A stretch of DNA of 64,000 nt from a candidate division WOR-3 bacterium (GCA_965649265.1 CBFGKC010000006.1:114975-178974); one strand, 5' to 3'; positions 2,418 through 25,017 are shown, counted from the first letter of the stretch. The notes: generated by a model from the letters alone, not told the origin. Made by a program: numbers and translations.

Positions 2418-2548
2418 CCGGACCTCCAGTTTTTTTCTCCGCCGTCCGGCGAAGTCCACAAAGATTGAGATAAGGATAATGTATGTCGAAAAGGCTCATT
2501 GTCAAGAGGGGGGAGGGGGCAGTGCCTGGAAGTTTGTTGCATCCGGTA

Positions 2549-7153: not shown

Positions 7154-7294
7154 AGACTGTGTTAAAGGGCTTTGTTCAGCCAGGCAAGGAAAATTCCCGC
7201 CCTTCATGATTTTTAAAAGTAACCCGCACGGTTGATGGTATAAATATCACCACTACTACCTCTGAACAATACCCTTACCTCCTTTCATAAACAA

Positions 7295-10522: not shown

Positions 10523-11587
10523 TCATCCGTAGAAGTACTGGTAAGAGAGCGAGCGTATTACGTCTCCGGAACGATCCTTGCTTATCTCCTCCAGAATATG
10601 TCCCTTGTCATCGTAGCGTAGATCGACGAATCCGTAAGGCTTGTTGCGCTCGTCGTGCCAGATTATCTTTATAGGCTCCTTTCCTTCTTTATCGTACTTG
10701 TACTCCCATGATTTCGTACGCCTTTTGTTGCTGTCGTGCCATTCCTTTTTAAGAAGGCGGCCTTTGCGGTCGTACTGGAATTCAATCGTATTTAAAATCT
10801 CGTTCTGGGAGTTACGGGTAATTTCCTTGGTAATCTTTCCGTCCTTGCTTACTTCCCTGTCGAAAACCTGCAGGGTGACACCCGAACGATCTATGTGTAT
10901 TTCCTGAACCAGGACCCCGTCCTTGTCGTAAATCATCTGTTGTGTGCGGACAGGCTGTCCTGCGGTGTCGAAGAAAACCATTCTCGTGAGACGATCCCCG
11001 TCGTACTCGTAGCGGCATATCTCGTTTACGCGATCGTTGAGAACCGTGCGGCGTTCGACCAGTCGGTTGCCCGATCCCTTTGGAGGAGGGGGAGGGGGTG
11101 CTGAAAAAGAAGCCTGGCCTTGAGGCTGGGGTTGTGGAGAAGCGGTTCTTGTGTCCTTTGCTTGCGTTTTGGCCTGCGGCTGCAGCTGAGGCTCCGGAGC
11201 GCGCTGTTTGGCGGCAATGGCGGGCGAAAGCGTCGGCATGGCATCCCTGCGCGGATGTTCGTCTCCCTGTTTGAGCGATAAGCGAAGTCTGGATTCCAGA
11301 TGTGTTTCAAGATGATCTATGAGCTTTACGGCCTTTTCGAGGTCGTTGGACTCGATAACGGCCAGCGTAATTTCGTTAAGTATCTCGACCTGGAATTCGT
11401 GAGCGGCAATCTTGATAAGCTCGGGAGAAATGGATTCGCGCGCGGCCGCAAGATGCACTTCCACCCTCTGGCTGAGCTTGCGGTTTTCCTCAAGAAGATC
11501 CGCAATGCGTTTGGCCAGTTCTTCCTGTTCTTTTGCCAGGTCCTGGTACTTTAAATAATCTTTTTCGGGATCGTACTTAGAAGCCAT
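10523..11587 (-). CDS. Hypothetical protein: N-terminal coiled coil, Pro/Gln-rich linker, C-terminal YD-like repeats
   Basis: ATG 11587 (MASKYDPEK...); the track uses an upstream GTG at 11599. Repeats seen: IYDKDGVLVQE, FQYDRKGRLLKKEW, YKYDKEGK, LRYDDKGHILEE. Confidence 0.55.
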   Translation of the reverse strand: MASKYDPEKDYLKYQDLAKEQEELAKRIADLLEENRKLSQRVEVHLAAARESISPELIKIAAHEFQVEILNEITLAVIESNDLEKAVKLIDHLETHLESRLRLSLKQGDEHPRRDAMPTLSPAIAAKQRAPEPQLQPQAKTQAKDTRTASPQPQPQGQASFSAPPPPPPKGSGNRLVERRTVLNDRVNEICRYEYDGDRLTRMVFFDTAGQPVRTQQMIYDKDGVLVQEIHIDRSGVTLQVFDREVSKDGKITKEITRNSQNEILNTIEFQYDRKGRLLKKEWHDSNKRRTKSWEYKYDKEGKEPIKIIWHDERNKPYGFVDLRYDDKGHILEEISKDRSGDVIRSLSYQYFYG

Positions 11588-11618
11588 GGATTGTCTCACT
11601 GGTTGTTGTCATACGCTA

Positions 11619-11731: not shown

Positions 11732-13069
11732 TCATTTCACAATTATAACCTTGCAGATTCGGCAAGGATCTACATCGGGGACTATGAAATACACGCCTGC
11801 CTCGTGTCCTTTACCCCATTTGAAAGTGCCTTGTGTTTGAGATGGTTTTATTTTGTCCACCTTGCGGCCGGATGCGTCGTATACATCGGCTTGAAAACCG
11901 CTGGGATGTCCCGAGTATTGCAGCACTATCTCCTTACCGATGGGGGAGAGGAGTTGCCAGGCTGTTATTTGCTCGACAGCAGGTTTTTCCGCGACTCCTA
12001 CGTTGCCAAGGGAATCGGTCTTAATAAGACAGATTTTGTAAATACCGCTTTCCGAGGTCATAACCTCTCCGGTAATAATAAAACCCTTATCCTGGGTTTC
12101 CTGGACACTGAATCCTCTGTTCCATGAGTTTTCGCCGAATTGTTTTGTCCACTGAAAGTTTCCATTTTTATCTAACTTAAGGAGGAGCAGAAAAGTTCCG
12201 TGATCGGTCCTGAAAATTCCGGTTGCGGCTAAACCGCCGTCATATGTCTCATCACAATCATAGGCCTGCAGAGAATCTCTTGCAAAAGACCAGACTGTAT
12301 CCCCCAGTTCATCGAGCTTGAGTATCCATAAAGCCTGCCCGCCGTTTTTCCAGCCTGCAACATAGTACCCACCTTCGGTCTGGTGTATGGAGTAGCCCTT
12401 TTCTCCTTCCGTGGACAAGCCATGGCTTTTTGCCCAAAGGAGATTGCCCTTATCATCGGTCTTGACAACGCCCAGATGAAAGGCTGAATCTCTGCCTGTT
12501 ACAATAAAACCGTTATCTTCAGTTTTTGCGATACACAAACCTTCCAGCCCATACTGGTGCGTCCAGACCGTATCGCCGTTCTTGTCGAACTTCATGATAG
12601 TCCAGGGGGTGCCTGTTGCAGCATATCCGTCTGCCGTTTCGATTACACATTCGCCATAAGAAAAACCACTATTATTGCCAATCGCCTGAGTCCATAAAGT
12701 GTCGCCATAAGGGTTCGTTTTTATCAACCACAAATGAACCGTCTGCCAGCCACCCGCACAACTACCCACGAGCGTATATCCTTCGTCAGTTGTTTGGATG
12801 ACAGAAAGGCCTTTACCGCCGTAAGCTTTTGAATCCTTGTATGTTTTAGACCATTGGATTTCGCCCAAAGGATCGGTTTTCAGGAGGCAGGTTCCGGCTA
12901 CTATATATCCTCCATCCTTTGTTTGCTTGACGGAGTATCCTGAATTGAAATCAGCGTCACCGTAAGTTTTCATCCAGCCGGCAACACTCGACAGAGGGAA
13001 TATCAGCAACCCAAGAACCGTCAAGACTATGTTTGTCAGAGGATTAAACACTAACCTCGATTTTTCCAT
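11732..13069 (-). CDS. Secreted repeat protein (same ~50-aa repeat family as 2652..4340) with T9SS-type C-terminal domain
   Basis: N-terminal hydrophobic segment LTNIVLTVLGLLIFPLSSVAG. Repeats such as VKQTKDGGYIVAG...KTDPLGEIQW and IQTTDEGYTLVG...WLIKTNPYGDTLW. C-terminus IVLQYS...DVYDASGRKV...GVYFIVPDVDPCRICKVIIVK. Confidence 0.7.
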   Translation of the reverse strand: MEKSRLVFNPLTNIVLTVLGLLIFPLSSVAGWMKTYGDADFNSGYSVKQTKDGGYIVAGTCLLKTDPLGEIQWSKTYKDSKAYGGKGLSVIQTTDEGYTLVGSCAGGWQTVHLWLIKTNPYGDTLWTQAIGNNSGFSYGECVIETADGYAATGTPWTIMKFDKNGDTVWTHQYGLEGLCIAKTEDNGFIVTGRDSAFHLGVVKTDDKGNLLWAKSHGLSTEGEKGYSIHQTEGGYYVAGWKNGGQALWILKLDELGDTVWSFARDSLQAYDCDETYDGGLAATGIFRTDHGTFLLLLKLDKNGNFQWTKQFGENSWNRGFSVQETQDKGFIITGEVMTSESGIYKICLIKTDSLGNVGVAEKPAVEQITAWQLLSPIGKEIVLQYSGHPSGFQADVYDASGRKVDKIKPSQTQGTFKWGKGHEAGVYFIVPDVDPCRICKVIIVK

Positions 13070-13157: not shown

Positions 13158-14459
13158 CTAGCTCGCGTAAGGGAACAGGAACTTTAGCGATGCGCCGAAG
13201 CGGTAGAACTTTTCGGTATACAAATCTTCCTCCAGCCCGAACTTCTTGGACCAGGTCGCGTACTCGAAGGAACTGTTGAGGACAACATACGAAGAGATAG
13301 GTATGCCTATCCCTGCGGTTACACCTTTGAGATACTTTGGTGTGTGCTGGCCTGAGTCGGCCTGCGGGATCGCGTCAAAGTAGAAACCTCCGCGTACTAT
13401 CACAGGCGATACGAATTCGGCACCGAAGCGGAACGTGGAACCGTCGTTCACGCCGAGCCTTGAGCCTAAGGCCTCGACGGCAGTGAAGAAGCGAGTCTGG
13501 AATTCACCTGAAAGATTGAGGAAAGGCAAAATCTTCGACCGCAAACCGACGGTGAAGACGCCGGGCAACATGTAGGCTGTTGAGTCATCTACCTGGTGTT
13601 TTATCTGAATTCCATTAGTGTCCAATACAAGCGTTGAATCAAACCAAGTAATCTCCGTTCCGGAAAGGCTTTCCTCGCCCCATCTCCAGCCCCAGGCTAT
13701 AGGTGATCGATATGAGAAGCTTATACCCAACTGGGGAAAGGGTTCCGCAAACGCGCCTACAGTGAAAAAATTTCCTGTCGAGGAGAAGTTACCTTTGTAT
13801 CTTATTCGTGTTTCATCGTATATACCGGAGGTGTCCCCGTCTTCAATCTCAAGATCATCGTAAACGCTTACTTCGTAATAGCTGCTTTTGAGCTTCTCTA
13901 GTGCGCTGAAGCTGAAGGCCAGACCAATGGAGTAATTGTCCAGTATGCTCATTGCGATCGCCGGGGTTATTACCCTTAAACCGCCGGTTGCGGTATCGGT
14001 CATCTTATAACTTCCGTTTTCGAATTCCCAGTTAATCTCCCTGTTGACGGCATTATCAATATGTAGGTGATAGCCGAAAGCAGGATAGAGCACAGCGTAT
14101 TCCGCGATCTGGATGGGCAAAGCTAAAGAGACGTGTGTGAACTGGGGGATGGTGTTATATTTTGTGTAGTATTGCTCTTCTTGTATCTCTTCCTGGCCGA
14201 AACCCCAGTAAAGCCTTCCGCCGATCTCCATTTCAAGATAATCAGCGTCCAGCAAAAGAGCAGGATTGAAAAAGATGGCGTTCGAACCCTGAGCGCTGAC
14301 CGATCCGGTATTGCCCATGCCGCAGGAACGGACATCCACGACGGTGGGATTAATTGCGTCAACCATAAATGCATAAACGGTTGAATTTACGAAAAATAGC
14401 GGTAACAATACGACCAAAGTCTTAAAGGTCGCTTTTTTTTCAAATCCTGACATGCACAT
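13158..14459 (-). CDS. Putative outer-membrane beta-barrel protein (PorV/FadL-like N-terminal motif)
   Basis: ATG 14459 after GGAGGT (track ORF extends to 14567). Signal-like FKTLVVLLPLFFVNSTVYA. The motif GMGNTGSVSAQGSNAIFFNPALLL resembles the G-x-G-G...NPA motif of PorV/PorQ/FadL-like barrels. Sequence shows alternating amphipathic pattern. Weak family call. Confidence 0.45.
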   Translation of the reverse strand: MCMSGFEKKATFKTLVVLLPLFFVNSTVYAFMVDAINPTVVDVRSCGMGNTGSVSAQGSNAIFFNPALLLDADYLEMEIGGRLYWGFGQEEIQEEQYYTKYNTIPQFTHVSLALPIQIAEYAVLYPAFGYHLHIDNAVNREINWEFENGSYKMTDTATGGLRVITPAIAMSILDNYSIGLAFSFSALEKLKSSYYEVSVYDDLEIEDGDTSGIYDETRIRYKGNFSSTGNFFTVGAFAEPFPQLGISFSYRSPIAWGWRWGEESLSGTEITWFDSTLVLDTNGIQIKHQVDDSTAYMLPGVFTVGLRSKILPFLNLSGEFQTRFFTAVEALGSRLGVNDGSTFRFGAEFVSPVIVRGGFYFDAIPQADSGQHTPKYLKGVTAGIGIPISSYVVLNSSFEYATWSKKFGLEEDLYTEKFYRFGASLKFLFPYAS

Positions 14460-14492
14460 ACCTACCTCCAGGCTTGCCTTTTTTGTATCTAT

Positions 14493-14521
14493 AGTGTATA
14501 CCGAAACATGTGATTTGTCAA
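14493..14521 (-). promoter_or_regulatory. sigma70-type promoter TTGACA-N17-TACACT (minus strand)
   Basis: TTGACA 14521-14516, TACACT 14498-14493, about 30 nt upstream of ATG 14459. Confidence 0.4.
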
Positions 14522-14671
14522 GCCCTTCTGTGAGCTTCTGGTCATCTAAGTCAAGCCAAAAAAACATCTGTAACCGTCAGCCCTCTCAGTCATATCCCGG
14601 CATTGGTCTTACAGACTGAGTTAATTGGAATAATATCCAAATCACAAGCAGAGAAAGATGTGTTACTGAGT

Positions 14672-15040: not shown

Positions 15041-15096
15041 GTGTTACGGGGGGGGGACGGGTGTTACGGGTGGGTGTTACGGGTGGCGTTACGGGG
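15041..15096 (-). repeat. C-rich decamer array (CCCGTAACAC on the gene strand), 4 copies, overlapping the rSAM stop codon
   Basis: Plus strand reads GTGTTACGGG at 15041, 15061 and 15074, and GCGTTACGGGG at 15087. Same motif arrays occur at 48002-48082 and 58790-58832. Confidence 0.8.
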
Positions 15097-16111
15097 CAGA
15101 GAGAATCTGGGCGACGAATGGTTCGGTACCACCGCATTCATTTGCGGCGGCCCGGCACGATGCCCGGCATGTCTCGATATCCTTGCACCCTCTGCACATC
15201 TCCGGTATATCCTCAATGAACTCCTTCCTTTCGGCGGAATCCATCAGCTCCCAGAAACTTTTTTCCCTGATATTCCCGAGAACGAGCGGGGTGTGGTTGC
15301 ACGGACGCAGATTGCCTATGGAATCCACCACCGGGTAGCACTCCTCGGTTCCCGCCGAGCAGAAACCGAAGCCGAGATGCGGGTAGTTCTTAATATCCAC
15401 GAGGCAGCAGGGGATAGGTATCGATACGCTTATGGGGAACCTCTTTTCTACCGCGAACCGCTCGGCTGTGTCGAGCATGAAGAGCACATCCTGGGGGGAG
15501 GGGGAGAGTTCGTCGAGATTCTCGAGTCCCCTTCCGCCGGGATTGAAGCGGTTGAGCATCACGCCGTGCGTACCGAGGCTCCTTGCGAACTCCAGGGTTT
15601 CCCAGAGCCTTGCGAGGTTGATCTTTGTGACGATCAGGGCGACTACAATCTTCGCCTTTGTCGAAAGCACGGCCTCTATCCCTCGAACTGATTTCTCGAA
15701 GCTTCCACTGCATCCCTGCAGGTATTCGTGCTCGTCTGGCCTGTCCGATAGAAGCTGGATCTCGAAAAGAGAGATTCCAGCCCTCACAAGCGTCTTTGCG
15801 AGTTTCTTGTCGAGCGCCTGGCCGTTCGTGATGATGTTGAGCTGAGCGCCCGAGAGTGCGGCCTGAAGCGAGATGTCCACGAGATCGGGTCTCAGAGTCG
15901 GTTCTCCGCCGCTTATCGTGAAGAGTGACGGCTTCGTCTCTTTTAAGAGCTTTGCCAGCATCTCGCGGGTTTCCTTTGGGTTCAAGTCCTCATGTACAGT
16001 TTCCGGATGCTTATGCCAGATGTTGTAGCAGAAGCGGCATTTGAGATTACATCTTTGGGTTACTTCGAAGATGAGGATTTTCTGGCGGCGGTCCCTTAAC
16101 GAATCGTTCAT
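15089..16111 (-). CDS. Radical SAM enzyme with C-terminal SPASM-type auxiliary cluster domain
   Basis: CNLKCRFC (CX3CX2C) at residues 21-28. GGEPTL SAM-binding-like motif. C-terminal FCSAGTEEC...GNLRPC...LGNI...CRGCKDIETCRASC cysteine pattern. The ATG lies 1 nt after the stop of paralog P1 (TAG-C-ATG). Confidence 0.85.
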   Translation of the reverse strand: MNDSLRDRRQKILIFEVTQRCNLKCRFCYNIWHKHPETVHEDLNPKETREMLAKLLKETKPSLFTISGGEPTLRPDLVDISLQAALSGAQLNIITNGQALDKKLAKTLVRAGISLFEIQLLSDRPDEHEYLQGCSGSFEKSVRGIEAVLSTKAKIVVALIVTKINLARLWETLEFARSLGTHGVMLNRFNPGGRGLENLDELSPSPQDVLFMLDTAERFAVEKRFPISVSIPIPCCLVDIKNYPHLGFGFCSAGTEECYPVVDSIGNLRPCNHTPLVLGNIREKSFWELMDSAERKEFIEDIPEMCRGCKDIETCRASCRAAANECGGTEPFVAQILSAP

Positions 16112-16112
16112 G

Positions 16113-16688
16113 CTAATTATCTTCCTTTTTCTCAGTTCCTGACGTATCCGGTTTGCTGACTATTAGTTTTGCCAGGTGAGAGGTTTCAGAATTAAGCGAG
16201 GATATTTTCATGAAGACCCTGACGGTTTCAGGCGGAAGGCCTCGAACATCCAGCCTCGCTTCCAGAAGTTCCGCGGAGCTGTCGAATTTCCCGTCGACCG
16301 GGTCGAGCGATATAATATAAGGTTCAGCATCCGGTCGGCTAACCGCGGCCGTAGCACTGTATATTATGTCACCAGGTATTTCTGTTCTTCCAAGAACCTT
16401 TATAGTTACGGAATCCGCACCCCTGGTCGGGTTGGGATAGATCAAAAGCGAGTCGACAATCTCATCTGCAGGCGGAGAAAAATGAACATAGTAGCAAGTA
16501 ATCGCCGGTTCATAGTGACGGTGTGTCAGACATCCTATGAGCGAAAGTAAGCCTCCTAGAAGAACCAGTTTAAAATGTCTGGTTGTTCTTGAAAATCGGT
16601 TCTTGCTCTCTAAAACCGAAAGAAGATGGAATACTAAACCTCCCGCTCGGCTCAACAACCCTGAGAGCCTATTACGCAACTTGATCAC
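16113..16688 (-). CDS. Array paralog P1 of 12 (numbered by coordinate): anchored Ig-like protein, unknown family, lipobox variant
   Basis: GTG start. MIKLRNRLSGLLSRAGGLVFHLLSVLE. Lipobox-like LIGC. ITCYY. YPNPTRGADSVTIKV. DGKFDSSAE. Acidic tail KPDTSGTEKKEDN. Confidence 0.8.
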   Translation of the reverse strand: MIKLRNRLSGLLSRAGGLVFHLLSVLESKNRFSRTTRHFKLVLLGGLLSLIGCLTHRHYEPAITCYYVHFSPPADEIVDSLLIYPNPTRGADSVTIKVLGRTEIPGDIIYSATAAVSRPDAEPYIISLDPVDGKFDSSAELLEARLDVRGLPPETVRVFMKISSLNSETSHLAKLIVSKPDTSGTEKKEDN

Positions 16689-16717
16689 TGGTCAATATAC
16701 GGCTGATAGGGATGGTG

Positions 16718-17278
16718 TCAATCCTTTTCTTCCGTAGAGTCAGGGTCCGTCACGACAAGCATTAGTTGTTGCGTATACATGCCTGCCTGGGAGGTGTAGA
16801 AGGTCAGGTCCACCCATGTTGTTTCGGAGACAAGCCCTCCGATATAGAACCTCCCCTGAACGGCCTCAAGCGTGTCCGAAAAATCTCCGTCAACCGCATC
16901 GAGAGGCGTAAGAAGCGTGTCTGATGCCAGTTTTATCGTCGCGCCGGTAATGATGTTGCCTTCTATTCCCGGATCGTAAACCTTGGCCGTCGCCTTCACC
17001 GTTACCGTATCCGCGCCTTTTGTAGGATTCGGCGTAATAGCAGCCTCGGTGACTACCACGGGGTCAATTATGGCCATGTCGTAGCAGGTTGCTATGGGTG
17101 TCTCCGGCTGTGCCCTGAGCCAGCCTGCAACAGTCAGAACGAGACCTAAAACGAAGAGCTTGGTCCACCTCGCCGTCTTTTTAATAGTTCCCTCCTCCTC
17201 CCAGCTTGAAAGAACCGGAAGGAGTTTTGCTCCTATCCTCGTTATGAATGATGAAAGCGCGTTTCGAGTCTTAATCAT
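16718..17278 (-). CDS. Array paralog P2
   Basis: MIKTRNALSSFITRIGAKLLPVLSSWEEEG. ARWTKL plus hydrophobic helix ending WLRAQ. ATCYD. TPNPTKGADTVTVKATAKV. DGDFSDTLE. Tail DPDSTEEKD. Confidence 0.8.
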   Translation of the reverse strand: MIKTRNALSSFITRIGAKLLPVLSSWEEEGTIKKTARWTKLFVLGLVLTVAGWLRAQPETPIATCYDMAIIDPVVVTEAAITPNPTKGADTVTVKATAKVYDPGIEGNIITGATIKLASDTLLTPLDAVDGDFSDTLEAVQGRFYIGGLVSETTWVDLTFYTSQAGMYTQQLMLVVTDPDSTEEKD

Positions 17279-17307
17279 GTTTTACTGTACCTCACTTTTC
17301 CGGACTG

Positions 17308-17865
17308 TCAATCTTTTTCTGTCGAATCGGGTTCAGAAATCACAAGCTGCAGCCCTTCAACATTTATGCCTGCCTGCGGGGTGTAGAATGTGATGTAAAC
17401 CCGGGTGGTTTCGGGTCCAAGCCCGGTGACGCACAGACGGCCTTCAACTGTCTCGAGCGTGTCCGAAAACTTGCCGTCGACCGCACGGAGAGGGACAATA
17501 ACCGTATCGCCGCCAATTCTTGCATCCGCTCCGGAGATTATATTGCCTTCAAGTTTCGAATCGTAGACCCTTGCGGTCGCTCTCACCGTAACCGAGTCGG
17601 CGCCATTTGTGGGGTTAGGCGTAATAGCAGCCTCAGTGATTATTACCGGTTCAATGACGACCGGATCATAACAGGTCGCATACCCCCTGGTCTCTTGGGC
17701 CGAGAGCCAGCCTAGTAAGCCCAGGATGAAACCCAGAATGTAGATTTTTGCAAATCTCGCGAATCCCTTAAGAACCCCTTCCTCCTCCCACCTTGAGAGA
17801 AGCGGGAAGAGTTTTGCTCCAACATTGCTTACAAACGCCGCGAGCGAGCTGCGAGCTTTGGCCAT
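17308..17865 (-). CDS. Array paralog P3
   Basis: AAGGAGG RBS. MAKARSSLAAFVSNVGAKLFPLLSRWEEEG. ATCYDP. TPNPTNGADSVTVRATARV. DGKFSDTLE. Tail EPDSTEKD. Confidence 0.85.
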   Translation of the reverse strand: MAKARSSLAAFVSNVGAKLFPLLSRWEEEGVLKGFARFAKIYILGFILGLLGWLSAQETRGYATCYDPVVIEPVIITEAAITPNPTNGADSVTVRATARVYDSKLEGNIISGADARIGGDTVIVPLRAVDGKFSDTLETVEGRLCVTGLGPETTRVYITFYTPQAGINVEGLQLVISEPDSTEKD

Positions 17866-17929
17866 AAAATTCCTCCTTGACTGCGACTACTCCTGTTATA
17901 CAGTTGCAGGTGCAATAAATTCCCTTAAC

Positions 17930-18469
17930 CTATTCGGTTATCTCGATATCTGAGCTGTCTTCGATTACCTTGTTCTTGCTTGTAGATATTCTGACATGGA
18001 CTTTTGCGTTTGCGGTATCGATACCCCTGATGCTTAACTTCGCCGAGATTTCCTCGTATGAACCGTCAAAAGCACTATCCGCAGCCAGCATCTCCACCGT
18101 GTCGGAATTTGCACCTTTCCCGGTAATGAAACACTGTGCCGATTTTACATAATTGTCCTTGGAGCCTGGGATTATATTGGCTCTGGCTTTGACCATAACC
18201 GAGTCGGCTCCAGCCGTAGGATCAGGCAAAACCTCGATATTATGAATGGGGGGAGGTACAGGCTCGTAGCACGTGACCGGGCAGCAGGCGGTCGAGCCGG
18301 CCGCTCCGGAAAGACCTAATCCTGAAACGAGTGCACTCAGGAATGAAAGCTTCATCCACCTTGCAAGCTTGGGTAGTACCCTGCGTTCCTCGCATCTTGA
18401 GTAGAAGTCAAAAAGCGCAAAACCGGCTTTCCTGAGAATCTCGAAAACAATGTGTCTTGCCTGAGCCAT
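17930..18469 (-). CDS. Array paralog P4
   Basis: The track ORF extends to 18547. ATG 18469 (MAQARHIVFEILRKAGFALFDFYSRCEERRVLP) aligns with the other N-termini and removes the overlap with P5. VTCYEP. LPDPTAGADSVMVKA. Confidence 0.8.
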   Translation of the reverse strand: MAQARHIVFEILRKAGFALFDFYSRCEERRVLPKLARWMKLSFLSALVSGLGLSGAAGSTACCPVTCYEPVPPPIHNIEVLPDPTAGADSVMVKARANIIPGSKDNYVKSAQCFITGKGANSDTVEMLAADSAFDGSYEEISAKLSIRGIDTANAKVHVRISTSKNKVIEDSSDIEITE

Positions 18470-18476
18470 GATACTG

Positions 18477-19016
18477 CTATTCTGATTCCGTGATGTACAA
18501 ATCCACTGTCGTGTAATCTCGCTCCCCTTTATTGGAGGTGGCCTCAATGTTTACACTGCAGGTATCGCCTGCGGCAAGATTGCCTACGTATAATCGAGCT
18601 TCTACGTCTTTCATTCCGTATGGATCGGTTTTCGTGACAATCATCGTTATGGTGTCGTCATTAAGAACACATATCACCTTATCCACATAATCTTCTTCTA
18701 TGCTTACTCCATTGGGGACATTTGCGCTCGCTTCAACGGTTACTGAATCTGAGCCTGACGTCGGATTAGGGGTTATTGAGCAGGTTGCGATTTGAGGTTT
18801 CGGGTACTCCATCGGTGCGTAACACGTTATGCAGTTGAGCATGCTGGCCGCACTCAATGCGGTAATTCCTGTCACGAAGGCTCCGAGGAAGGTCGTTTTT
18901 ACCCACCTGGAAGCCCTTGGCAGTATCCCGCAATCCTCACAGTGGGAGAAGAAGTTGAAGAGTGATGTTCCCATTCTCCTCAAGGTTTCAAAGAAGAGGT
19001 AGCGGCTACTGGCCAT
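18477..19016 (-). CDS. Array paralog P5
   Basis: GGAGG RBS. MASSRYLFFETLRRMGTSLFNFFSHCEDCGILPRASRWVKTTFLGAFVTGITALSAASM. ITCYAP. TPNPTSGSDSVTVEA. Confidence 0.85.
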   Translation of the reverse strand: MASSRYLFFETLRRMGTSLFNFFSHCEDCGILPRASRWVKTTFLGAFVTGITALSAASMLNCITCYAPMEYPKPQIATCSITPNPTSGSDSVTVEASANVPNGVSIEEDYVDKVICVLNDDTITMIVTKTDPYGMKDVEARLYVGNLAAGDTCSVNIEATSNKGERDYTTVDLYITESE

Positions 19017-19031
19017 TGTGCCTCCGGTGAT

Positions 19032-19547
19032 TTATTCAGTTATCTCGAGGTCGATTGTTGTATCCGCTCGCTGGTCTTCATTGTCGTATTCTGTGATTTG
19101 TATGGTTACTGTATCGGGCTCGAGGTCTCCTATATACAACTTCGCGTTCACGGCATATTCATTCGTGTAGTCTCCAGGCTCTATCTTCATGACGGTGGTG
19201 TCATTCTCGAGGATACATATCACCTTTTTCAATTCAATCCCGTTATCGGCAATTGCCTTGGCGGAAACGCTAACAGTGTCGGCCCCTGCCGTAGGATTTG
19301 GTGCCACGGAGGCGTTTTCGATTCGAGGTGATTCAATTGGCAAGTAGCAGCCGGTGGGGATACAGTTGATCATGCTGGCCGCGCTCAACGCGGTAATTCC
19401 TGTCACGAAGGCTCCGAGGAAGGTCGTTTTTACCCACCTGGAAGCCCTTGGCAGTACCCCGCATTCCTCACAGCGAGAGAAGAAGTTAAAGAGTGAGGTG
19501 CCTATCCTCCTCAAGGATTCAAAGAAAAAAAACTTTGTTCTAGCCAT
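19032..19547 (-). CDS. Array paralog P6
   Basis: ATG 19547 after AAAGGAGG (track ORF extends to 19580). MARTKFFFFESLRRIGTSLFNFFSRCEECGVLPRASRWVKTTFLGAFVTGITALSAASM. TGCYLP. APNPTAGADTVSVSA. Confidence 0.85.
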   Translation of the reverse strand: MARTKFFFFESLRRIGTSLFNFFSRCEECGVLPRASRWVKTTFLGAFVTGITALSAASMINCIPTGCYLPIESPRIENASVAPNPTAGADTVSVSAKAIADNGIELKKVICILENDTTVMKIEPGDYTNEYAVNAKLYIGDLEPDTVTIQITEYDNEDQRADTTIDLEITE

Positions 19548-19569
19548 GGTTCCTCCTTTCACTGTATTA

Positions 19570-19597
19570 AATATAATCAACTTGCTCGGATTGTCAA
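19570..19597 (-). promoter_or_regulatory. Internal sigma70-type promoter TTGACA-N16-TATATT inside the array (upstream of P6)
   Basis: TTGACA 19597-19592, TATATT 19575-19570, in the 82-nt P7-P6 gap. Confidence 0.45.
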
Positions 19598-19629
19598 TCC
19601 ATGAAAATCACCTGAAATCCTGGCAGGTG

Positions 19630-20157
19630 TTATTTATCAGTAACGCGGAGAACGGTCGAGCCTATGCCCCAGCCTGAGGTTTTTGAATCGACTTTTACAA
19701 AGACCTGAGTGCTGTCCGTTTTGATTTTCTTCACGTATATGCGCCCGATGAGTTCCTCATTATTCTCGTCGAATGCGCCGTCCCTCGCTATCATCCGGAT
19801 GGTGTCTCCATCGACTATGCACTGGGCTGAGGCTATTATTTCGAGATCGCTTGCGTTTTCAAGTCTGGCTTTGGCGGTAACGGTCACCGAGTCGGCGCCT
19901 TTCGTCGGGTTAGGCTTGACTACTATCTCCGAAACCCTGGGATATACGGCCACAGGTTCGTAGCAGGTCACGAGCCCCTGATCCAGCGGAGGTTTTTTGG
20001 CGCATGCCGCAATGATGGTCAGCCACGCTCCAGCAAGCGCGAGCTTGAGCCAGCGTGATATCCTTGGCAGAGCGCTTCGTTCCTCACACCCGGTCAGAAT
20101 GGAGAACAGTGCCGAGCCTGTTCTCCTCAAAAACCTTGACAGTAACTCTCGCTTCAT
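19630..20157 (-). CDS. Array paralog P7, lipobox variant
   Basis: MKRELLSRFLRRTGSALFSILTGCEERSALPRISRWLKL. Lipobox-like IAAC. VTCYEP. KPNPTKGADSVTVTA. ATGA overlap with the P8 stop. Confidence 0.8.
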   Translation of the reverse strand: MKRELLSRFLRRTGSALFSILTGCEERSALPRISRWLKLALAGAWLTIIAACAKKPPLDQGLVTCYEPVAVYPRVSEIVVKPNPTKGADSVTVTAKARLENASDLEIIASAQCIVDGDTIRMIARDGAFDENNEELIGRIYVKKIKTDSTQVFVKVDSKTSGWGIGSTVLRVTDK

Positions 20158-20726
20158 AACGAGTCCTTTTCAGTGATAAATAGCGGTAATGAAACCAGTG
20201 CTTCTTCACCCTTGGAAGTGGCCGCGTGCACGTAGACGAAGGTGGTCCCGGGTTTAAGACCCGCGACGCTGATGCGTGCCTCAATCATCTCGACGGTATC
20301 CGAGAAGCGGCCGTCCACAGGGTACATCCGGATTTTCCTTGACGTATCAATGGCCATTACGAGCCAAGCATCCGACACGTAATTGTTCTCAAGGCCAGGT
20401 TCCAGCACCCTTGCGGTGCCCGTTATCTTGACAGTGTGCACGCCCCTTGTCGGGTTCGGGCTTGCCTGAACTACTGAGATTTCGGGATCCATCCTTCTCA
20501 TCATGTAACATGTGTGGACAGGACCGTCGCCGTCTCCTCCTGGTCCGGGTCTTGCCTTTTTCCCGCACGAGGCTATCAGGGCGACAACGAGCCCGAGTAG
20601 CGAAACCTTCAAAAAGCGCGCGGTCTTTGAAAATATTGGAGTATCCTGGCATCTCGATAGCGCATTAAACACCAGATTACCTGCATTTCTGAGAACTGCA
20701 ATCAAGCTCTTTCTCATCTTTGCCAT
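20154..20726 (-). CDS. Array paralog P8, lipobox variant
   Basis: MAKMRKSLIAVLRNAGNLVFNALSRCQD. Lipobox-like IASC, then Gly/Pro/Asp linker. HTCYM. SPNPTRGVHTVKITG. DGRFSDTVE. Confidence 0.8.
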   Translation of the reverse strand: MAKMRKSLIAVLRNAGNLVFNALSRCQDTPIFSKTARFLKVSLLGLVVALIASCGKKARPGPGGDGDGPVHTCYMMRRMDPEISVVQASPNPTRGVHTVKITGTARVLEPGLENNYVSDAWLVMAIDTSRKIRMYPVDGRFSDTVEMIEARISVAGLKPGTTFVYVHAATSKGEEALVSLPLFITEKDSL

Positions 20727-20745
20727 TCTGCCTCTCCTATCTCGT

Positions 20746-21288
20746 TTAATCTGGTTCAGTAATCACCAGTTCTAAAGATTCAATTTCAATTTGACCGGAA
20801 GAATTTTCTACCTCTAAGTATATCCATGTCGTTTCCGGCTCAAGGTCTCCAACGTAAAGTCGGCCGACTATTCTCTCCGAAGCGGCGTCGAATTTCCCGT
20901 CAATCGCCCGCATGGGGTAATATATTGTATCTCCATCCATTCTCATGCGGGCTGAGCTTATCGTGCTTTCGCCGCTGTAGTGATCGCTAATCTTTGCCGT
21001 GGCCTTGACGGTTACCGAATCGGCGCCCCTTGTAGGGTTAGGCCTTACGGAAAGTTTGGATAGTTCTATGAGGGGAGGGGGGGCGGGCTTGTAGCACATT
21101 ATGACGTCTTCCTTTGCTTCGAGCGAGAGAGCGCTCACGAGTGCCACGAAAAATCCGAGGAATGTGAGCTTCAACCATCTTGCCGCCCCGGGGAGGATGC
21201 GGCGTTCCTCGAATCCGGAAAACGTTCCGAAAAGCCTTCCGCCAATCCTTGCAAAAAAGTCTGCCAGGCGTTTTCTGAGTTCAGGCAT
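20746..21288 (-). CDS. Array paralog P9
   Basis: AAGGAGGA RBS embedded in the P10 tail codons. MPELRKRLADFFARIGGRLFGTFSGFEERRILPGAARWLKL. IMCYKP. RPNPTRGADSVTVKATAKI. DGKFDAASE. Confidence 0.85.
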   Translation of the reverse strand: MPELRKRLADFFARIGGRLFGTFSGFEERRILPGAARWLKLTFLGFFVALVSALSLEAKEDVIMCYKPAPPPLIELSKLSVRPNPTRGADSVTVKATAKISDHYSGESTISSARMRMDGDTIYYPMRAIDGKFDAASERIVGRLYVGDLEPETTWIYLEVENSSGQIEIESLELVITEPD

Positions 21289-21289
21289 A

Positions 21290-21859
21290 TCAATCCTCCT
21301 TATTCTCGTTGCTGTCCGCTTCCGGTGCGGTGATGATTAATTGCCTCCAGGTGCTTTCCGCGTTGCCTGAGTTTGTCCTCACCACTATGTAAATCCAGGT
21401 GGTCTCCGGCTTGTGATCCCCGACGTAGAGACGGCCTTCGACTGTTTCAAGGGTATCGCCGAACTTACCGTCAACCGCTTTCATCGGATATAAAAGGGTA
21501 TCTCCGGTAAGCTGCATAATTGCTTCGGAAACAGCGGTGTCACCTGAGCAATAATATGCAGATTCCAATTTTGCGGTTGCCTTGACTGTAACGGTGTCTT
21601 TTCCTGCAGTGGGGTTCGGTGTTGCCGAGACATCGAAGATACTTAAGTGAGGTTCCTCAATAGGCACGTAGCACATGATGATATCGTCGTCCGCCTTGAG
21701 CGCTGGCGCGCCCAGCAGGGTTACCAGCAATCCCAGAACCGAAAGCTTTAGCCATCTTGCCGGTCTGCGTAGGATACCGCGTTCCTCCAATCCGGACAGT
21801 ATCCCGAATAAGGAGCCGCCTATCCGTGAAGAGATGCGGGCCAGTAAGCCTTTTGTCAT
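21290..21859 (-). CDS. Array paralog P10
   Basis: The ATG directly follows the P11 stop (TAGATG). MTKGLLARISSRIGGSLFGILSGLEERGILRRPARWLKL. IMCYVP. TPNPTAGKDTVTVKATAKL. DGKFGDTLE. Tail EADSNENKED. Confidence 0.85.
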   Translation of the reverse strand: MTKGLLARISSRIGGSLFGILSGLEERGILRRPARWLKLSVLGLLVTLLGAPALKADDDIIMCYVPIEEPHLSIFDVSATPNPTAGKDTVTVKATAKLESAYYCSGDTAVSEAIMQLTGDTLLYPMKAVDGKFGDTLETVEGRLYVGDHKPETTWIYIVVRTNSGNAESTWRQLIITAPEADSNENKED

Positions 21860-22435
21860 CTACTCCTCCCTGGCAGCGCTCGAATCAGCTGCGAGCGAAT
21901 CAATCCTTGTTACGGTGTAGGACTGCCAAAGAATCTCTTCATCTTCTCTGGAACTCGTCACGTCTATAAAGAACCAGTGGGTGCCGGTATCCAGGTCGCC
22001 TGTGTAAAACATGGCCTCAAGAACCTCAAGAGTGTCGTTAAGCTTGCCGTCCACGGCCTTCATGGGAATCCTCAGGGTGTCACGCTGCCTGGAAAGCCAG
22101 GCGTTTCGGATGTAATTGTTCTCAAGGGTCGGGTCCAGAACTTTTGCAGTTACCTTTACTTTTACCGAGTCCGCTCCTCGAGTCGGATTTGGTGTGATGG
22201 ACACATCCGAAATCTTTACCTCCGGCATCCTCATGGCTACGTAACAGGTCTTAATTGTTTCTACCTCGGCGGAAAGTGCTCCGATGGCTGCGGTAAGAAA
22301 TCCAAGCAGTGAGAGCTTTAACCAGCGCGAAGCGCTGGGCACAATCCCGCGCTCTTCGAATCGCGACAGGAGTGAAAAGAGACCTCCTCCCAGCACTTCA
22401 AGAATCCTTACGACGAACCCTTTCGTTCTCGCCAC
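21860..22435 (-). CDS. Array paralog P11
   Basis: The track ORF extends to 22654. GTG 22435 (AAAGGTGGAG RBS, 1 nt after the P12 stop) gives MARTKGFVVRILEVLGGGLFSLLSRFEERGIVPSASRWLKL, matching the family. KTCYV. TPNPTRGADSVKVKV. Confidence 0.75.
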   Translation of the reverse strand: MARTKGFVVRILEVLGGGLFSLLSRFEERGIVPSASRWLKLSLLGFLTAAIGALSAEVETIKTCYVAMRMPEVKISDVSITPNPTRGADSVKVKVTAKVLDPTLENNYIRNAWLSRQRDTLRIPMKAVDGKLNDTLEVLEAMFYTGDLDTGTHWFFIDVTSSREDEEILWQSYTVTRIDSLAADSSAAREE

Positions 22436-22436
22436 G

Positions 22437-23009
22437 TCACTCCACCTTTGTCGAATCAGTCCTGATAGAATCAGGCTCCGAGACTTCAAAATAAAACCAG
22501 CTCGCTTCCAGTGCATCCTGGGATGTCTGGACGAGCATTGAGATCGAGTACTGGCCCGGTTCAAGATTTCCAACGTAAACCGTACCCTCGAGCACCTCGA
22601 GCGTGTCGTCCATCTTGCCGTCAAGTGCTTTGACCTTGAACCTCGTCGTATCACCGTCCCAGGAGAGCCAGGCGTCCTTTATGAAGTTATCCTTGATATT
22701 CGAGTACATCACCTTGGCCTGGGCCTTCACTTTCACCGAATCCGCTCCCTTCGTGGTATCAGGGGTTACGGACTTCTCTGTTATGATGACGTCGGGAATC
22801 CTCGCGACGATGTAGCAGGTGACTTCCGGATCCCTGGCTTGAAGTGAGAGTGTCGCGACTAGCGAGGCTATGATTCCCAGGGTCGAGATCTTTATCCATC
22901 TCGCGGCACGCGGCATGACGCCTTTTTCTTCTATCATTGTCAGAAAATGGAAAATTGCATCTCCCAGTTTCCCTAACAGCCTGGATAAGAGGTTGCGTGT
23001 CTTGGCCAT
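22437..23009 (-). CDS. Array paralog P12 (first gene of the operon)
   Basis: ATG 23009 after AAAGGAG (track ORF extends to 23087). MAKTRNLLSRLLGKLGDAIFHFLTMIEEKGVMPRAARWIKI. VTCYI. TPDTTKGADSVKVKA. DGKMDDTLE. Confidence 0.8.
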   Translation of the reverse strand: MAKTRNLLSRLLGKLGDAIFHFLTMIEEKGVMPRAARWIKISTLGIIASLVATLSLQARDPEVTCYIVARIPDVIITEKSVTPDTTKGADSVKVKAQAKVMYSNIKDNFIKDAWLSWDGDTTRFKVKALDGKMDDTLEVLEGTVYVGNLEPGQYSISMLVQTSQDALEASWFYFEVSEPDSIRTDSTKVE

Positions 23010-23224: not shown

Positions 23225-24547
23225 ATGCATCCATTTCTGGTTTTCTGTTGTTGTTTGATTTCATCTTTGACTTGGAATAGACATTATGATTTTCGGTTTA
23301 GTGACCACTGTAGCGCGCTTGTGCCGGTAGAGGACGGTTACGTGATTACGGGTAACACTATGCGGTATCTATTCGTGCAGAAGGTCGATACTCTGGGAAA
23401 TCAAGTCGGTTACAAAGAGTGGTATAAGGCCGAAGGTTATGACATAGAGAGAATGTCTGATGGTTATATTATTCTTGCGTACAAAGACGAATCTCCCAGG
23501 CACGGGATTTGGTTGGTAAGAACAGATAGCGATTTTGACACACTTTGGAGTAGAAGCTATGGATATAATAATGGAATTATGGCAAAATCTCACTCATTTG
23601 ATTTAACAGATGACAGTGGTTTAGTGATGGTCGGTGAGTGCGGCACGGGTCTTATTGTCTTTAAAACCGATAGTCTTGGTGATAGCTCCTGGGTAAAAAA
23701 ATATTTTCAGTCTGTCTCGATGCGCGCTGGGAATTTTATTGAAGAAACATCTGATCAAGGTTTTATTGTTACGGGAGTTTGTGAGGAACGTTTTTTTGCA
23801 CTGAAATTGGATGAGAATGGGGATTCCTTATGGTGTAAGAAATATTTTGAGGAAAAAACAGGTGAAGGTCTTTGTATAAGAGAAACCTCCGACAAAGGCT
23901 TTATAGTATTGGCTAGGATAAGGTATGGTAGTTCGGATTCCTTGCTTCTCATCAAGACGGATTCTTTTGGAAACGCTTTGTGGGTGAGAAAATTCAATTC
24001 GATGTCTCATTGGACTAGAACATGTTATATTGAGGTTCTGGATGATGGTTATGTTATGATTTCAGGGTCACAAGAAGGTCCATTAGTCAGGAAATTTGAC
24101 GAGTCTGGGAATGTCCTTTGGACAAAGACCTACAATCGTAATTTCGGTTATTTTTCCGGATTTGAAGGCACATGTATTCATTACACATCGGATAAAGGTT
24201 TTATTATTGGCACCGCTTTGGATATATCTCCATACGGATCAGACCTCTGGCTGGTGAAAACCGACAGCCTAGGAAACACGGTTCCTCTTGAATCCGTGAT
24301 AGAGCCAACGGAGACTGCCGTTAGCGAAGTTCATCTGAGTGTTTTGAATTCAGCTGTTGCATATTCCTTACCTGCTGGCGAGCGTTGTTTGTTGAAAATC
24401 TATGATGTTAGTGGAGTATTGAAAAAAGGAGAAATTGTTTGTGGCCGCGGAGAGATGCGACTAAAAGAATTCCCTGTAGGGGTTTATTTCGCTGAGTTAC
24501 AGTTCATGCGAAGTGCTGAAATCAAAAAGGTATTAGTTTTTCCCTAG
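23225..24547 (+). CDS. Secreted repeat protein (same ~50-aa repeat family as 2652 and 11732) with T9SS-type C-terminal domain
   Basis: Repeats such as IEETSDQGFIVTG...LKLDENGDSLW and IRETSDKGFIVLA...LLIKTDSFGNALW. C-terminus LLKIYDVSGVL...GVYFAELQFMRSAEIKKVLVFP. Confidence 0.7.
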   Translation: MHPFLVFCCCLISSLTWNRHYDFRFSDHCSALVPVEDGYVITGNTMRYLFVQKVDTLGNQVGYKEWYKAEGYDIERMSDGYIILAYKDESPRHGIWLVRTDSDFDTLWSRSYGYNNGIMAKSHSFDLTDDSGLVMVGECGTGLIVFKTDSLGDSSWVKKYFQSVSMRAGNFIEETSDQGFIVTGVCEERFFALKLDENGDSLWCKKYFEEKTGEGLCIRETSDKGFIVLARIRYGSSDSLLLIKTDSFGNALWVRKFNSMSHWTRTCYIEVLDDGYVMISGSQEGPLVRKFDESGNVLWTKTYNRNFGYFSGFEGTCIHYTSDKGFIIGTALDISPYGSDLWLVKTDSLGNTVPLESVIEPTETAVSEVHLSVLNSAVAYSLPAGERCLLKIYDVSGVLKKGEIVCGRGEMRLKEFPVGVYFAELQFMRSAEIKKVLVFP

Positions 24548-24576: not shown

Positions 24577-25017
24577 TTGTTCAAGTACAATCCCCGCGTG
24601 AAGCAGCTCTTATCGGACTGGCGGGTGCTTTCGGCGATCGCGATACTCGGATGGGGGACCTGGGGCATACTCTCAAAGATTGCCCTGAAACAGGTTGACT
24701 GGCGGGTCATGATGCTGATTACGTCCGTAGCCGCCCTTCCTCTGGCTTTCATACTCGGGATTCCGAATTTCGACTGGAAGTTTAACCGCTACATCCTTCT
24801 CGCTTTTTTTGCAGGAATCGGAGCCGAGGTCGCGACGCTCTCCTTCAACCGCGCGATTCAAAAGGGCGGACCCGCGAACGTCGTGGTCCCACTCACCTCA
24901 CAGTACGTGCTCGTCATAGTGCTTTTTTCGACCATTTTCCTAAAAGAGCCTATAACGTGGCAGAGAATCGTCGGCATCGTTGCCGCGCTCATAGCAATTG
25001 TGATGCTTTCGCTGTGA
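24577..25017 (+). CDS. Small DMT/EamA-like membrane transporter (single EamA-type domain)
   Basis: 146 aa with 4-5 hydrophobic helices. FFAGIGAEVATLSFNRAIQKGGPANVVVPLTSQYVLVIVLFSTIFLKEPITWQRIVG resembles an EamA domain. TTG start, or the downstream GTG. Confidence 0.55.
   Translation: MFKYNPRVKQLLSDWRVLSAIAILGWGTWGILSKIALKQVDWRVMMLITSVAALPLAFILGIPNFDWKFNRYILLAFFAGIGAEVATLSFNRAIQKGGPANVVVPLTSQYVLVIVLFSTIFLKEPITWQRIVGIVAALIAIVMLSL

Follow-up and report, generated by a model that had tools for sequence, protein, structure and literature searches.

A Cys-Tyr motif in a tandem array of Ig-like proteins as a candidate target of the adjacent radical SAM/SPASM enzyme

What is the role of the Cys-Tyr pair that recurs in every member of a tandem gene array in a candidate division WOR-3 bacterium? 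The array occupies positions 16113-23009 (minus strand) of a 64,000-nucleotide stretch (GCA_965649265.1, CBFGKC010000006.1:114975-178974; hereafter the window) and comprises 12 tandem genes of 171-191 codons each, separated by gaps of -4 to 82 nt. A gene for a radical S-adenosylmethionine (SAM) enzyme with a SPASM domain (15089..16111 (-), 340 aa) closes the array at its 3' end, its ATG sitting 1 nt past the stop codon of paralog 12: the 12 paralog genes and the terminal enzyme gene form one operon, and the enzyme is the presumed modifier of the motif. An earlier sequence-only reading had proposed that the Cys-Tyr is either the target of this enzyme or a covalent attachment point. The analysis reported here supports that proposal, chiefly through a coupling of motif and enzyme that extends across phyla, and from these sequence comparisons we judge it probable that the enzyme both recognizes and modifies the Cys-Tyr motif.

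The coupling is evident in a one-genome-per-species scan, which gave 213 loci with relatives of the enzyme, 80 of which were analysed. The longest same-strand open reading frame (ORF) ending at the start of the radical SAM gene holds one to four Cys-Tyr pairs in 77 of the 81 loci with upstream sequence. Per 1000 aa, these upstream ORFs have 4.9 C-Y and 4.1 [TSM]CY, compared to 0.39 and 0.10, respectively, in the remaining ORFs of the loci. In a stricter test, [T/S/M]-C-Y was found in the frame ending at the radical SAM start in 71 of 81 loci, compared to 9 of 243 control anchors, and in most of the 10 misses the motif either has a different residue at -1 or lies one or two genes further off. 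The logo from 128 sites – [A/V/I]-T-C-Y-[E/A/D/K]-[P/M]-[M/A/V]-x-x-x-P, with T at -1 in 88 and P at +3 in 81 – is the same as that of the window. If the cassette is defined as a radical SAM gene abutted by a gene for a [T/S/M]-C-Y-x-[P/M] protein, then all 12 window paralogs encode such a protein (with G at -1 in one). All-against-all clustering of 738 neighboring ORFs from 82 loci shows the upstream Cys-Tyr protein to be the only conserved neighbor: among these ORFs no RRE/PqqD protein (RRE being a peptide-recognition domain), no protease and no exporter is conserved.

The proteins that carry the motif are not all of one kind. Outside WOR-3 the main carrier is a helical family of ~230 residues with a near-invariant twin-arginine signal (S-R-R-D-F-x-K) and a lipobox-like Cys. 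Its first site, T-C-Y-A-P, lies a few residues past the signal peptide; its second, W-R-S-N-x-P-x-T-C-Y-E-P, lies mid-protein, and there C123 and Y124 are invariant. Exactly two sites (TCYAP, TCYEP) are present in 116 of 120 database members, the RR signal is present in all 120, and His residues near the motif are nearly invariant. Database annotation calls all of these members either hypothetical or 'twin-arginine translocation signal domain-containing protein', and they have no Pfam domain; the helical twin-arginine translocation (Tat) proteins number at least 327, all annotated as hypothetical. In Planctomycetota the carriers are equipped with a Sec signal, a lipoprotein signal or a two-helix anchor, and as many as four sites occur in proteins of 500-800 residues; a few more small, unclustered families also carry the motif. 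Pfam and NCBIfam scans of the helical and the large multi-site Cys-Tyr proteins matched no family. When the profile of the WOR-3 immunoglobulin (Ig)-like family, to which the window paralogs belong, was compared to that of the helical family, just 10 columns aligned, covering the motif alone. Because the motif is common to unrelated folds, with the adjacent enzyme as the common denominator, it is best described as a portable motif coupled to the enzyme family; on these alignments the Cys-Tyr motif appears to be a portable short linear element on exported proteins of differing folds. Some Planctomycetota Cys-Tyr proteins (L009:4730-6802, and those of loci L021, L035 and L048) have a two-helix anchor with G-P-R-W-K-R-R before the second helix, which recalls the A-R-W-L-K before the helix of the WOR-3 paralogs and may possibly be a shared targeting or insertion signal.

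The arrangement seen in the window also recurs in its closest relatives. The enzyme's nearest relatives (66-90% identity) belong to candidate division WOR-3 and Candidatus Stahlbacteria, where the enzyme gene is always the last of a Cys-Tyr/Ig array that starts beside a divergent EamA transporter gene. Such arrays have 9 copies in GCA_012517375.1 (L001), 17 copies, all with Cys-Tyr, in GCA_016934635.1 (L013) and one copy in L014 and L016. Since copy number is 1, 9 or 17 in related genomes, the window array can be seen as an expanded cassette: by this comparison it is in all appearance a lineage-specific expansion of a one-substrate, one-enzyme unit. Below 66%, relatives drop to a plateau of 38-44% identity, where the family is tight (48 sequences, mean column identity 58%, 48 invariant columns). 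The clade as a whole amounts to 213 species-level genome loci and at least 558 proteins, and is found in WOR-3/Stahlbacteria, Planctomycetota, Chloroflexota (Anaerolineae), Myxococcota, Gammaproteobacteria, Kiritimatiellia, Cyanobacteriota and Acidobacteriota.

A second line of evidence concerns conservation of the pair within the Ig family itself. Translation and alignment bear out the earlier observation that a Cys followed by Tyr is present in all 12 paralogs; the pentapeptides then listed (VTCYI, KTCYV, IMCYV, IMCYK, HTCYM, VTCYE, TGCYL, ITCYA, VTCYE, ATCYD, ATCYD, ITCYY) are all present as written, and seven of the 12 do read C-Y-x-P. C65 and Y66 are among 11 invariant columns of the 12-paralog alignment. 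In the 56-sequence family alignment no column but Y66 is invariant; C65 is present in 55 sequences, and P0051, the one exception, has Y-Y in the context V-T-Y-Y-T-V-P. The codons vary synonymously among the 12 paralogs (TGC in eight and TGT in four; TAC in eleven and TAT in one), which shows that selection acts on the protein, and conservation of the pair, as judged from these alignments, evidently exceeds that expected from chance or recent duplication. Within the 64-kb window the pattern [TSM]CY.[PMAV] is confined to these paralogs. Only a small family of short, anchored homologs came out of searches by profile (1.84 billion representative proteins) and by word index (5.8 billion); 62 of 65 of these have Cys-Tyr, and the prediction that homologs in other genomes would keep the pair is thus upheld.

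These data also dispose of three simpler roles for the Cys. The Ig-like C-terminal domain recurs as repeats in giant multidomain proteins, and Cys-Tyr is found upstream of the PNPTxG repeats in none of 84 cases; together with the position of the site in the linker, this rules out Cys-Tyr as an element of the Ig fold and places it in the anchor-linker module, to which it belongs. A structural disulfide is likewise ruled out: C65 lies outside the folded domain in the structural model and is the only conserved Cys in both the 12- and the 56-sequence alignment, so the second conserved Cys that a disulfide would call for is absent from both. The earlier count of exactly one conserved Cys therefore stands as regards conservation, with the correction that 10 of the 12 paralogs contain further, non-conserved Cys residues. 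Three of them do have a separate lipobox-like Cys, as had been noted (IASC followed by GKK in paralog 5, IAAC followed by AKK in paralog 6 and LIGC followed by LTH in paralog 12). The Cys of the Cys-Tyr pair is not itself a lipobox Cys, being preceded by T, M or G, having no lipobox context and lying 3-17 residues past the end of the hydrophobic run. This last range replaces the 8-25 residues first given; similarly, Tyr and the PNPT block are separated by 13-18 residues rather than 10-15.

The 12 paralogs, with pairwise identities of 31-52%, are built to a common plan: a basic N-terminus, a hydrophobic helix, a short linker, a PNPT block (P-N-P-T-x-G-A-D-S-V-T-V) and ~100 further residues. The N-terminus contains a conserved amphipathic stretch (G16, F20, E27), invariant R37 and K40 immediately precede the hydrophobic helix, and in most paralogs an A-x-A-like or lipobox-like site follows the hydrophobic run. 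An AlphaFold model of paralog 4, built from 56 family sequences (mean predicted local distance difference test (pLDDT) score 92.5), has a helix at 2-28, the hydrophobic helix at 33-55, a linker at 56-73 and an Ig-like sandwich of six strands at 74-176; C65-Y66 lies in the unstructured linker (linker pLDDT ~74). Scans against Pfam and NCBIfam matched the paralogs to no family, and in a Foldseek search of the PDB the paralog model matched nothing beyond generic Ig-like/E-set folds (sulfite oxidase C-terminal domain, NPC2, RbmA, SoxZ), apart from a weak archaellin-like match (helix plus sandwich). As a separate observation, the presumed cytoplasmic N-terminal helix has a Cys in the context S-R/G/H-C-E/Q in six of the 12 paralogs (among them some of paralogs 5-9), the position being W, F, L or I elsewhere; in paralogs 7 and 8 this helix contains a C-E-E/D-C pair (CEEC/CEDC).

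What kind of enzyme stands beside these proteins? Its place in the radical SAM/SPASM superfamily is secure: both Pfam domains score past their cut-offs (Radical_SAM 74.5 bits, SPASM 30.6 bits), and the CxxxCxxC motif is accompanied by the seven-Cys pattern of a C-terminal SPASM domain. The cluster motif (C21/C25/C28) is invariant in 48 sequences, as are C236, C251, C271, C306, C309, C315 and C319, with C326 kept in 47. The nearly invariant Cys229 of the family (P-I-S-C-S-I-P) is Val or Ile in the window enzyme and its two closest relatives, and these three have extra Cys residues at 235 (P-C-C) and 258 (E-E-C); to judge from the alignment this looks like compensatory relocation of an auxiliary-cluster ligand. 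The enzyme opens directly with the radical SAM core (first strand at 12-18, cluster motif at 21-28), and with the core at the very N-terminus there is no fused RRE domain. The AlphaFold model (pLDDT 93) has the canonical SPASM fold, with Foldseek template modelling (TM) scores of 0.65-0.72 to SuiB, anSME, SkfB and PqqE; being equally close to all four, it offers no clue to the chemistry. By sequence, the closest solved homolog in a PDB profile search is PqqE (6c8v; full-length alignment, E = 7e-24), while SkfB is both the second-best PDB sequence match (core only) and the top Foldseek match.

None of the curated families takes the enzyme in. In an NCBIfam scan neither the enzyme nor two distant relatives reached the cut-off of any model: the enzyme falls outside AhbD (haem b synthase, TIGR04545; 111.8 bits vs a cut-off of 500), NirJ2 (99 vs 500), GeoRSP radical SAM (TIGR04303; 101.6 vs 400) and PqqE (TIGR02109; 81.7 vs 381, with no pqq genes nearby). 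Nor does it resemble a classical maturase of ribosomally synthesized and post-translationally modified peptides (RiPPs), for it lacks an RRE and no small conserved partner gene is found in the 82 loci; in place of a leader-core precursor with a protease or exporter there are substrates of 170-800 aa with signal peptides or anchors. By every criterion tested, the clade is not a member of the anSME, PqqE, AhbD, GeoRSP or sacti-/ranthipeptide maturase families, and neither Pfam nor NCBIfam has a model for the clade, for the motif or for the two substrate families.

In the mechanism that we propose, the enzyme would bind the T-C-Y-x-P stretch directly, in the cytoplasm, as a short linear motif (in the linker of the window proteins, [T/M]-C-Y-x-[P/M/V] and another Pro at +7 or +8). 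A 5'-deoxyadenosyl radical would then serve to modify the Cys, the Tyr next to it, or both. Modification would precede export or insertion, with the Ig-like domain ending up outside the cytoplasm. This timing is suggested by the enzyme's need for SAM and reduced Fe-S clusters, and by the Tat signals of the helical substrates; the positive-inside rule, together with the invariant Arg and Lys before the helix, points to an N-in orientation of the WOR-3 paralogs. Residues 1-60 would either be cleaved off as an extended signal peptide or stay on as a stable anchor.

As to the modification itself, any one particular chemistry must be considered doubtful. By analogy we lean slightly, and weakly, to an oxidation or cross-link for which electron-transfer auxiliary clusters would suffice: the Cys might become formylglycine, as anSME makes it, or be joined to the neighboring Tyr by a C-C or C-S bond, in the manner of PqqE/SuiB. 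A thioether of the sactionine or ranthionine type, formed by the Cys sulfur, is placed below it, again weakly. The preference derives from the eight to nine conserved Cys residues of the SPASM region, which in the spacing of this enzyme are presumably enough for full ligation of both auxiliary clusters (our assumption from the anSME structure, in which the auxiliary clusters are fully ligated by Cys). Full ligation may fit electron transfer (oxidation, C-C/C-X coupling) somewhat better than ligation of a substrate thiolate as in sactisynthases. Taken further, and only tentatively, the enzyme family would install a new modification of Cys plus Tyr (for example a cross-link or heterocycle, possibly redox-active), independently of a leader, on full-length Tat/Sec-exported proteins of at least eight phyla, the WOR-3 array being a 12-fold expanded set of surface or periplasmic Ig carriers.

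Comparison with known systems places this proposal. The closest parallel in logic is anSME acting on sulfatases (AtsB, ChuR, anSMEcpe), which the present system, by analogy, resembles in having a motif-directed enzyme without an RRE, and a substrate that would then be exported. Both are radical SAM/SPASM enzymes of ~340-370 aa that lack an RRE and are paired with a short Cys motif in a full-length, later-exported protein; the conserved Cys set is similarly spaced and the folds agree (TM 0.69-0.72). Nevertheless, the motif here is T-C-Y-x-P, as opposed to the C/S-x-P/A-x-R of anSME substrates, the substrates are Ig-like or helical with no Pfam match, and no sulfatase gene is present in the operon. 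The PDB profile match to anSME covers only the radical SAM core (10-165, 52 bits) and not the full length, and anSME is absent among the enzyme's top 25 NCBIfam matches. PqqE, which with PqqD acts on PqqA, is the closest solved homolog by sequence and a SPASM enzyme without a fused RRE; its chemistry involves Tyr, in a Glu-Tyr C-C cross-link. Yet no PqqA, PqqD or other pqq genes lie nearby, and the substrates here are proteins of 170-800 aa with signal peptides, compared to 20-30 aa for PqqA. QhpD, a radical SAM/SPASM enzyme, forms Cys thioethers in QhpC (the gamma subunit of quinohemoprotein amine dehydrogenase) in the cytoplasm before periplasmic export; compared by description, there being no QhpD model among the enzyme's NCBIfam matches, it differs from the present system, where qhp genes, a multi-Cys substrate and Cys-Asp/Glu pairs are all absent and the site is a single Cys-Tyr.

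The sacti- and ranthipeptide maturases (AlbA, SkfB, CteB, PapB, StsB) are also SPASM radical SAM enzymes with an invariant Cys in the substrate, but they have an N-terminal RRE, short leader-core peptides and usually a protease or exporter, none of which is found here; in the NCBIfam scan StsB scored 70 bits against a cut-off of 625 and PapB 57 against 340. MftC belongs to the PqqE-like SPASM clade and its chemistry centers on Tyr. The mycofact_rSAM model scores 75-100 bits, below the cut-off of 265, and MftC, together with the MftB chaperone, modifies a Val-Tyr at the C-terminus of a small peptide; the Tyr of the present motif is internal, and a Cys always stands before it. A literature search of incomplete coverage, which cannot establish novelty, found no paper on the enzyme clade, the motif or the substrate families.

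Much new peptide chemistry has come from radical SAM/SPASM enzymes. To our knowledge nearly all known SPASM enzymes act on short leader-guided peptides and few (anSME, QhpD) on whole proteins; these few are mechanistically and biotechnologically important, the formylglycine 'aldehyde tag' being an example. The present system is thus a SPASM maturase with a new motif and an unusual substrate class – exported full-length proteins – and the modification could be new chemistry. It brings together an uncurated enzyme clade and a clear target motif of 5-10 residues on exported proteins of unrelated folds, and thereby a testable substrate-enzyme pair for finding a new post-translational modification; T-C-Y-x-P is a possible portable tag, and large 'hypothetical' protein families of WOR-3, Anaerolineae and Planctomycetota gain, through the coupling, a first clue to their function.

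Several observations nevertheless weigh against the proposal that the enzyme recognizes and modifies the motif. The most pointed comes from a distant Ig subfamily (N-terminus M-A-R-I-K-R-N...R-K-G-L-L-P, signature D-G-x-F-D-S-D-S-E; also searched for in metagenomes with a six-sequence alignment), the arrays of which keep T-C-Y: no radical SAM gene is present in 11.4 kb of one such array locus (L094) or in 20.5 kb of another (L099; lineage of contig FWWM01000466.1 for both). Either the enzyme acts there in trans, or Cys-Tyr has a role that is independent of it. On a short contig from the same metagenome (L107), a member of the distant subfamily abuts a radical SAM gene of the clade, and this linkage makes it plausible, by the evidence of gene order, that the enzyme acts in trans on the distant arrays. 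There are also motif variants, Y-Y (P0051) and Y-C (L094:3725-4261, in P-M-Y-C-R-A-V), which may be decayed or unmodified copies. More generally, co-occurrence in genomes is no proof of catalysis on the motif; and with no recognizable RRE, and curated scores as high to AhbD/NirJ2 as to peptide maturases, a non-peptide substrate would be possible. The distant-subfamily arrays have features of their own: one or two genes for a conserved ~275-aa protein (...V-K-A-P-V-I-Y-F-Y-G...; L007:909-1823, L094:7099-7929 and 7973-8791, L099:9124-9951) break them up, and a convergent polysaccharide deacetylase gene follows, with no radical SAM gene nearby.

In the alternative that survives best, though we consider it improbable, Cys-Tyr would be the attachment or ligand site of a small molecule or cofactor made or tailored by the radical SAM enzyme, with Cys forming a thioether and Tyr an axial ligand (Cys-His in the CxxCH haem motif is a parallel), so that the proteins would be carriers and not direct substrates. 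The best curated matches are indeed to AhbD (112 bits) and NirJ2 (99 bits), on a par with the peptide maturases, although they fall far below their cut-offs (112 vs 500). The missing RRE domain, the Tat signals of the helical family – suited to the export of cofactor-loaded proteins – and its nearly invariant His near the motif would all be in keeping with a cofactor. However, each protein has one to four copies of the motif, set in Pro-rich unstructured linkers; around it the WOR-3 family shows neither a conserved His nor residues that would form a pocket, and no conserved genes for cofactor biosynthesis or attachment are found nearby.

Rather less probable still is that Cys-Tyr has nothing to do with the radical SAM enzyme, which would have some other substrate, and that the pair is a structural or sorting feature such as an intermolecular disulfide, a processing site or an envelope contact. 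Such a role would account for the distant Ig arrays that keep Cys-Tyr with no radical SAM gene within ~10 kb, and for the constant proximity of the motif to a signal peptide or anchor, both in the Ig family and, for site 1, in the helical one; but L107 ties the distant subfamily to the enzyme too, and no other conserved neighbor could serve as the enzyme's substrate. It also leaves unexplained why families unrelated in sequence share the motif beside the same enzyme, why site 2 of the helical family is mid-protein and why Tyr is even more conserved than Cys. Finally, recognition of the N-terminal 30-residue helix as a classical leader, with Cys-Tyr as the reaction site only or with the reaction elsewhere in the linker or Ig domain, can claim the conservation of that helix among the WOR-3 paralogs (G16, F20, E27) and the rule that peptide-modifying SPASM enzymes are leader-guided, but is very improbable given that the N-terminal region is not common to the distant Ig subfamily or the helical family – only the motif is – and that the enzyme has no RRE domain. 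None of the three accounts for motif sharing across folds as well as recognition and modification of Cys-Tyr by the enzyme.

The individual genes of the array, all on the minus strand, are as follows in the order of transcription. Paralog 1 (22437..23009, 190 aa) has the motif EVTCYIVARIP, its Cys-Tyr codons at 22812-22817. Paralog 2 (21860..22435, 191 aa) begins with a GTG 1 nt past the stop of paralog 1 and has IKTCYVAMRMP (codons 22241-22246); it is followed by paralog 3 (21290..21859, 189 aa), with IIMCYVPIEEP (21668-21673), and paralog 4 (20746..21288, 180 aa), with VIMCYKPAPPP (21091-21096). The lipobox-like paralogs 5 (20154..20726, 190 aa) and 6 (19630..20157, 175 aa) have VHTCYMMRRMDP (20505-20510) and LVTCYEPVAVYP (19960-19965). 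In paralog 7 (19032..19547, 171 aa from the ATG at 19547) the motif is PTGCYLPIESP (19344-19349), in paralog 8 (18477..19016, 179 aa) it is CITCYAPMEYP (18819-18824), and in paralog 9 (17930..18469, 179 aa from the ATG at 18469) it is PVTCYEPVPPP (18266-18271). Paralogs 10 (17308..17865, 185 aa) and 11 (16718..17278, 186 aa) have YATCYDPVVIEP (17668-17673) and IATCYDMAIIDP (17081-17086), and paralog 12 (16113..16688, 191 aa), which has a GTG start and is the third with a lipobox-like site, has AITCYYVHFSPP (16491-16496). A 20-mer containing the Cys-Tyr motif reads EAKEDVIMCYKPAPPPLIEL.

Among the surrounding genes, the one just downstream of the enzyme (13158-14567 (-)) encodes a 469-aa outer-membrane beta-barrel protein with weak matches to BamG (48 bits), PorV/PorQ and the FadL-type 'FilD'. 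It is conserved in L001/L002 (55% identity) and absent from L013, L014 and L016; owing to this absence it is not a core partner and was rejected as a component of the system. Two paralogous repeat-rich proteins of ~440 aa, probably beta-propellers with ~28-33% mutual identity, flank the array (11732-13069 (-) and 23225-24547 (+)); one has a weak LipL53/SBBP match, and both C-termini resemble a sorting domain of the type IX secretion system (T9SS)/FlgD-Ig kind. The gene at 11732-13069 is not a constant partner of the radical SAM gene. At 10523-11599 (-) lies a gene for a 358-aa protein with an N-terminal coiled coil, a Pro/Gln-rich spacer and C-terminal short repeats, and no Pfam match; its homolog directly follows the radical SAM gene in L014 and L016 (61-62% identity) and is close by in L001 (74%), making the protein a possible lineage-specific accessory of the system. 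The EamA-family transporter gene (24577-25017 (+)) is divergent from the array, an arrangement that is kept in L001, L002, L013, L014 and L016. Further away, 978-2459 (-) and 4886-7207 (-) encode large proteins ending in FlgD-Ig-type domains, one of them with BNR repeats; such proteins are typical of the secreted proteins of the superphylum and are consistent with the WOR-3 assignment.

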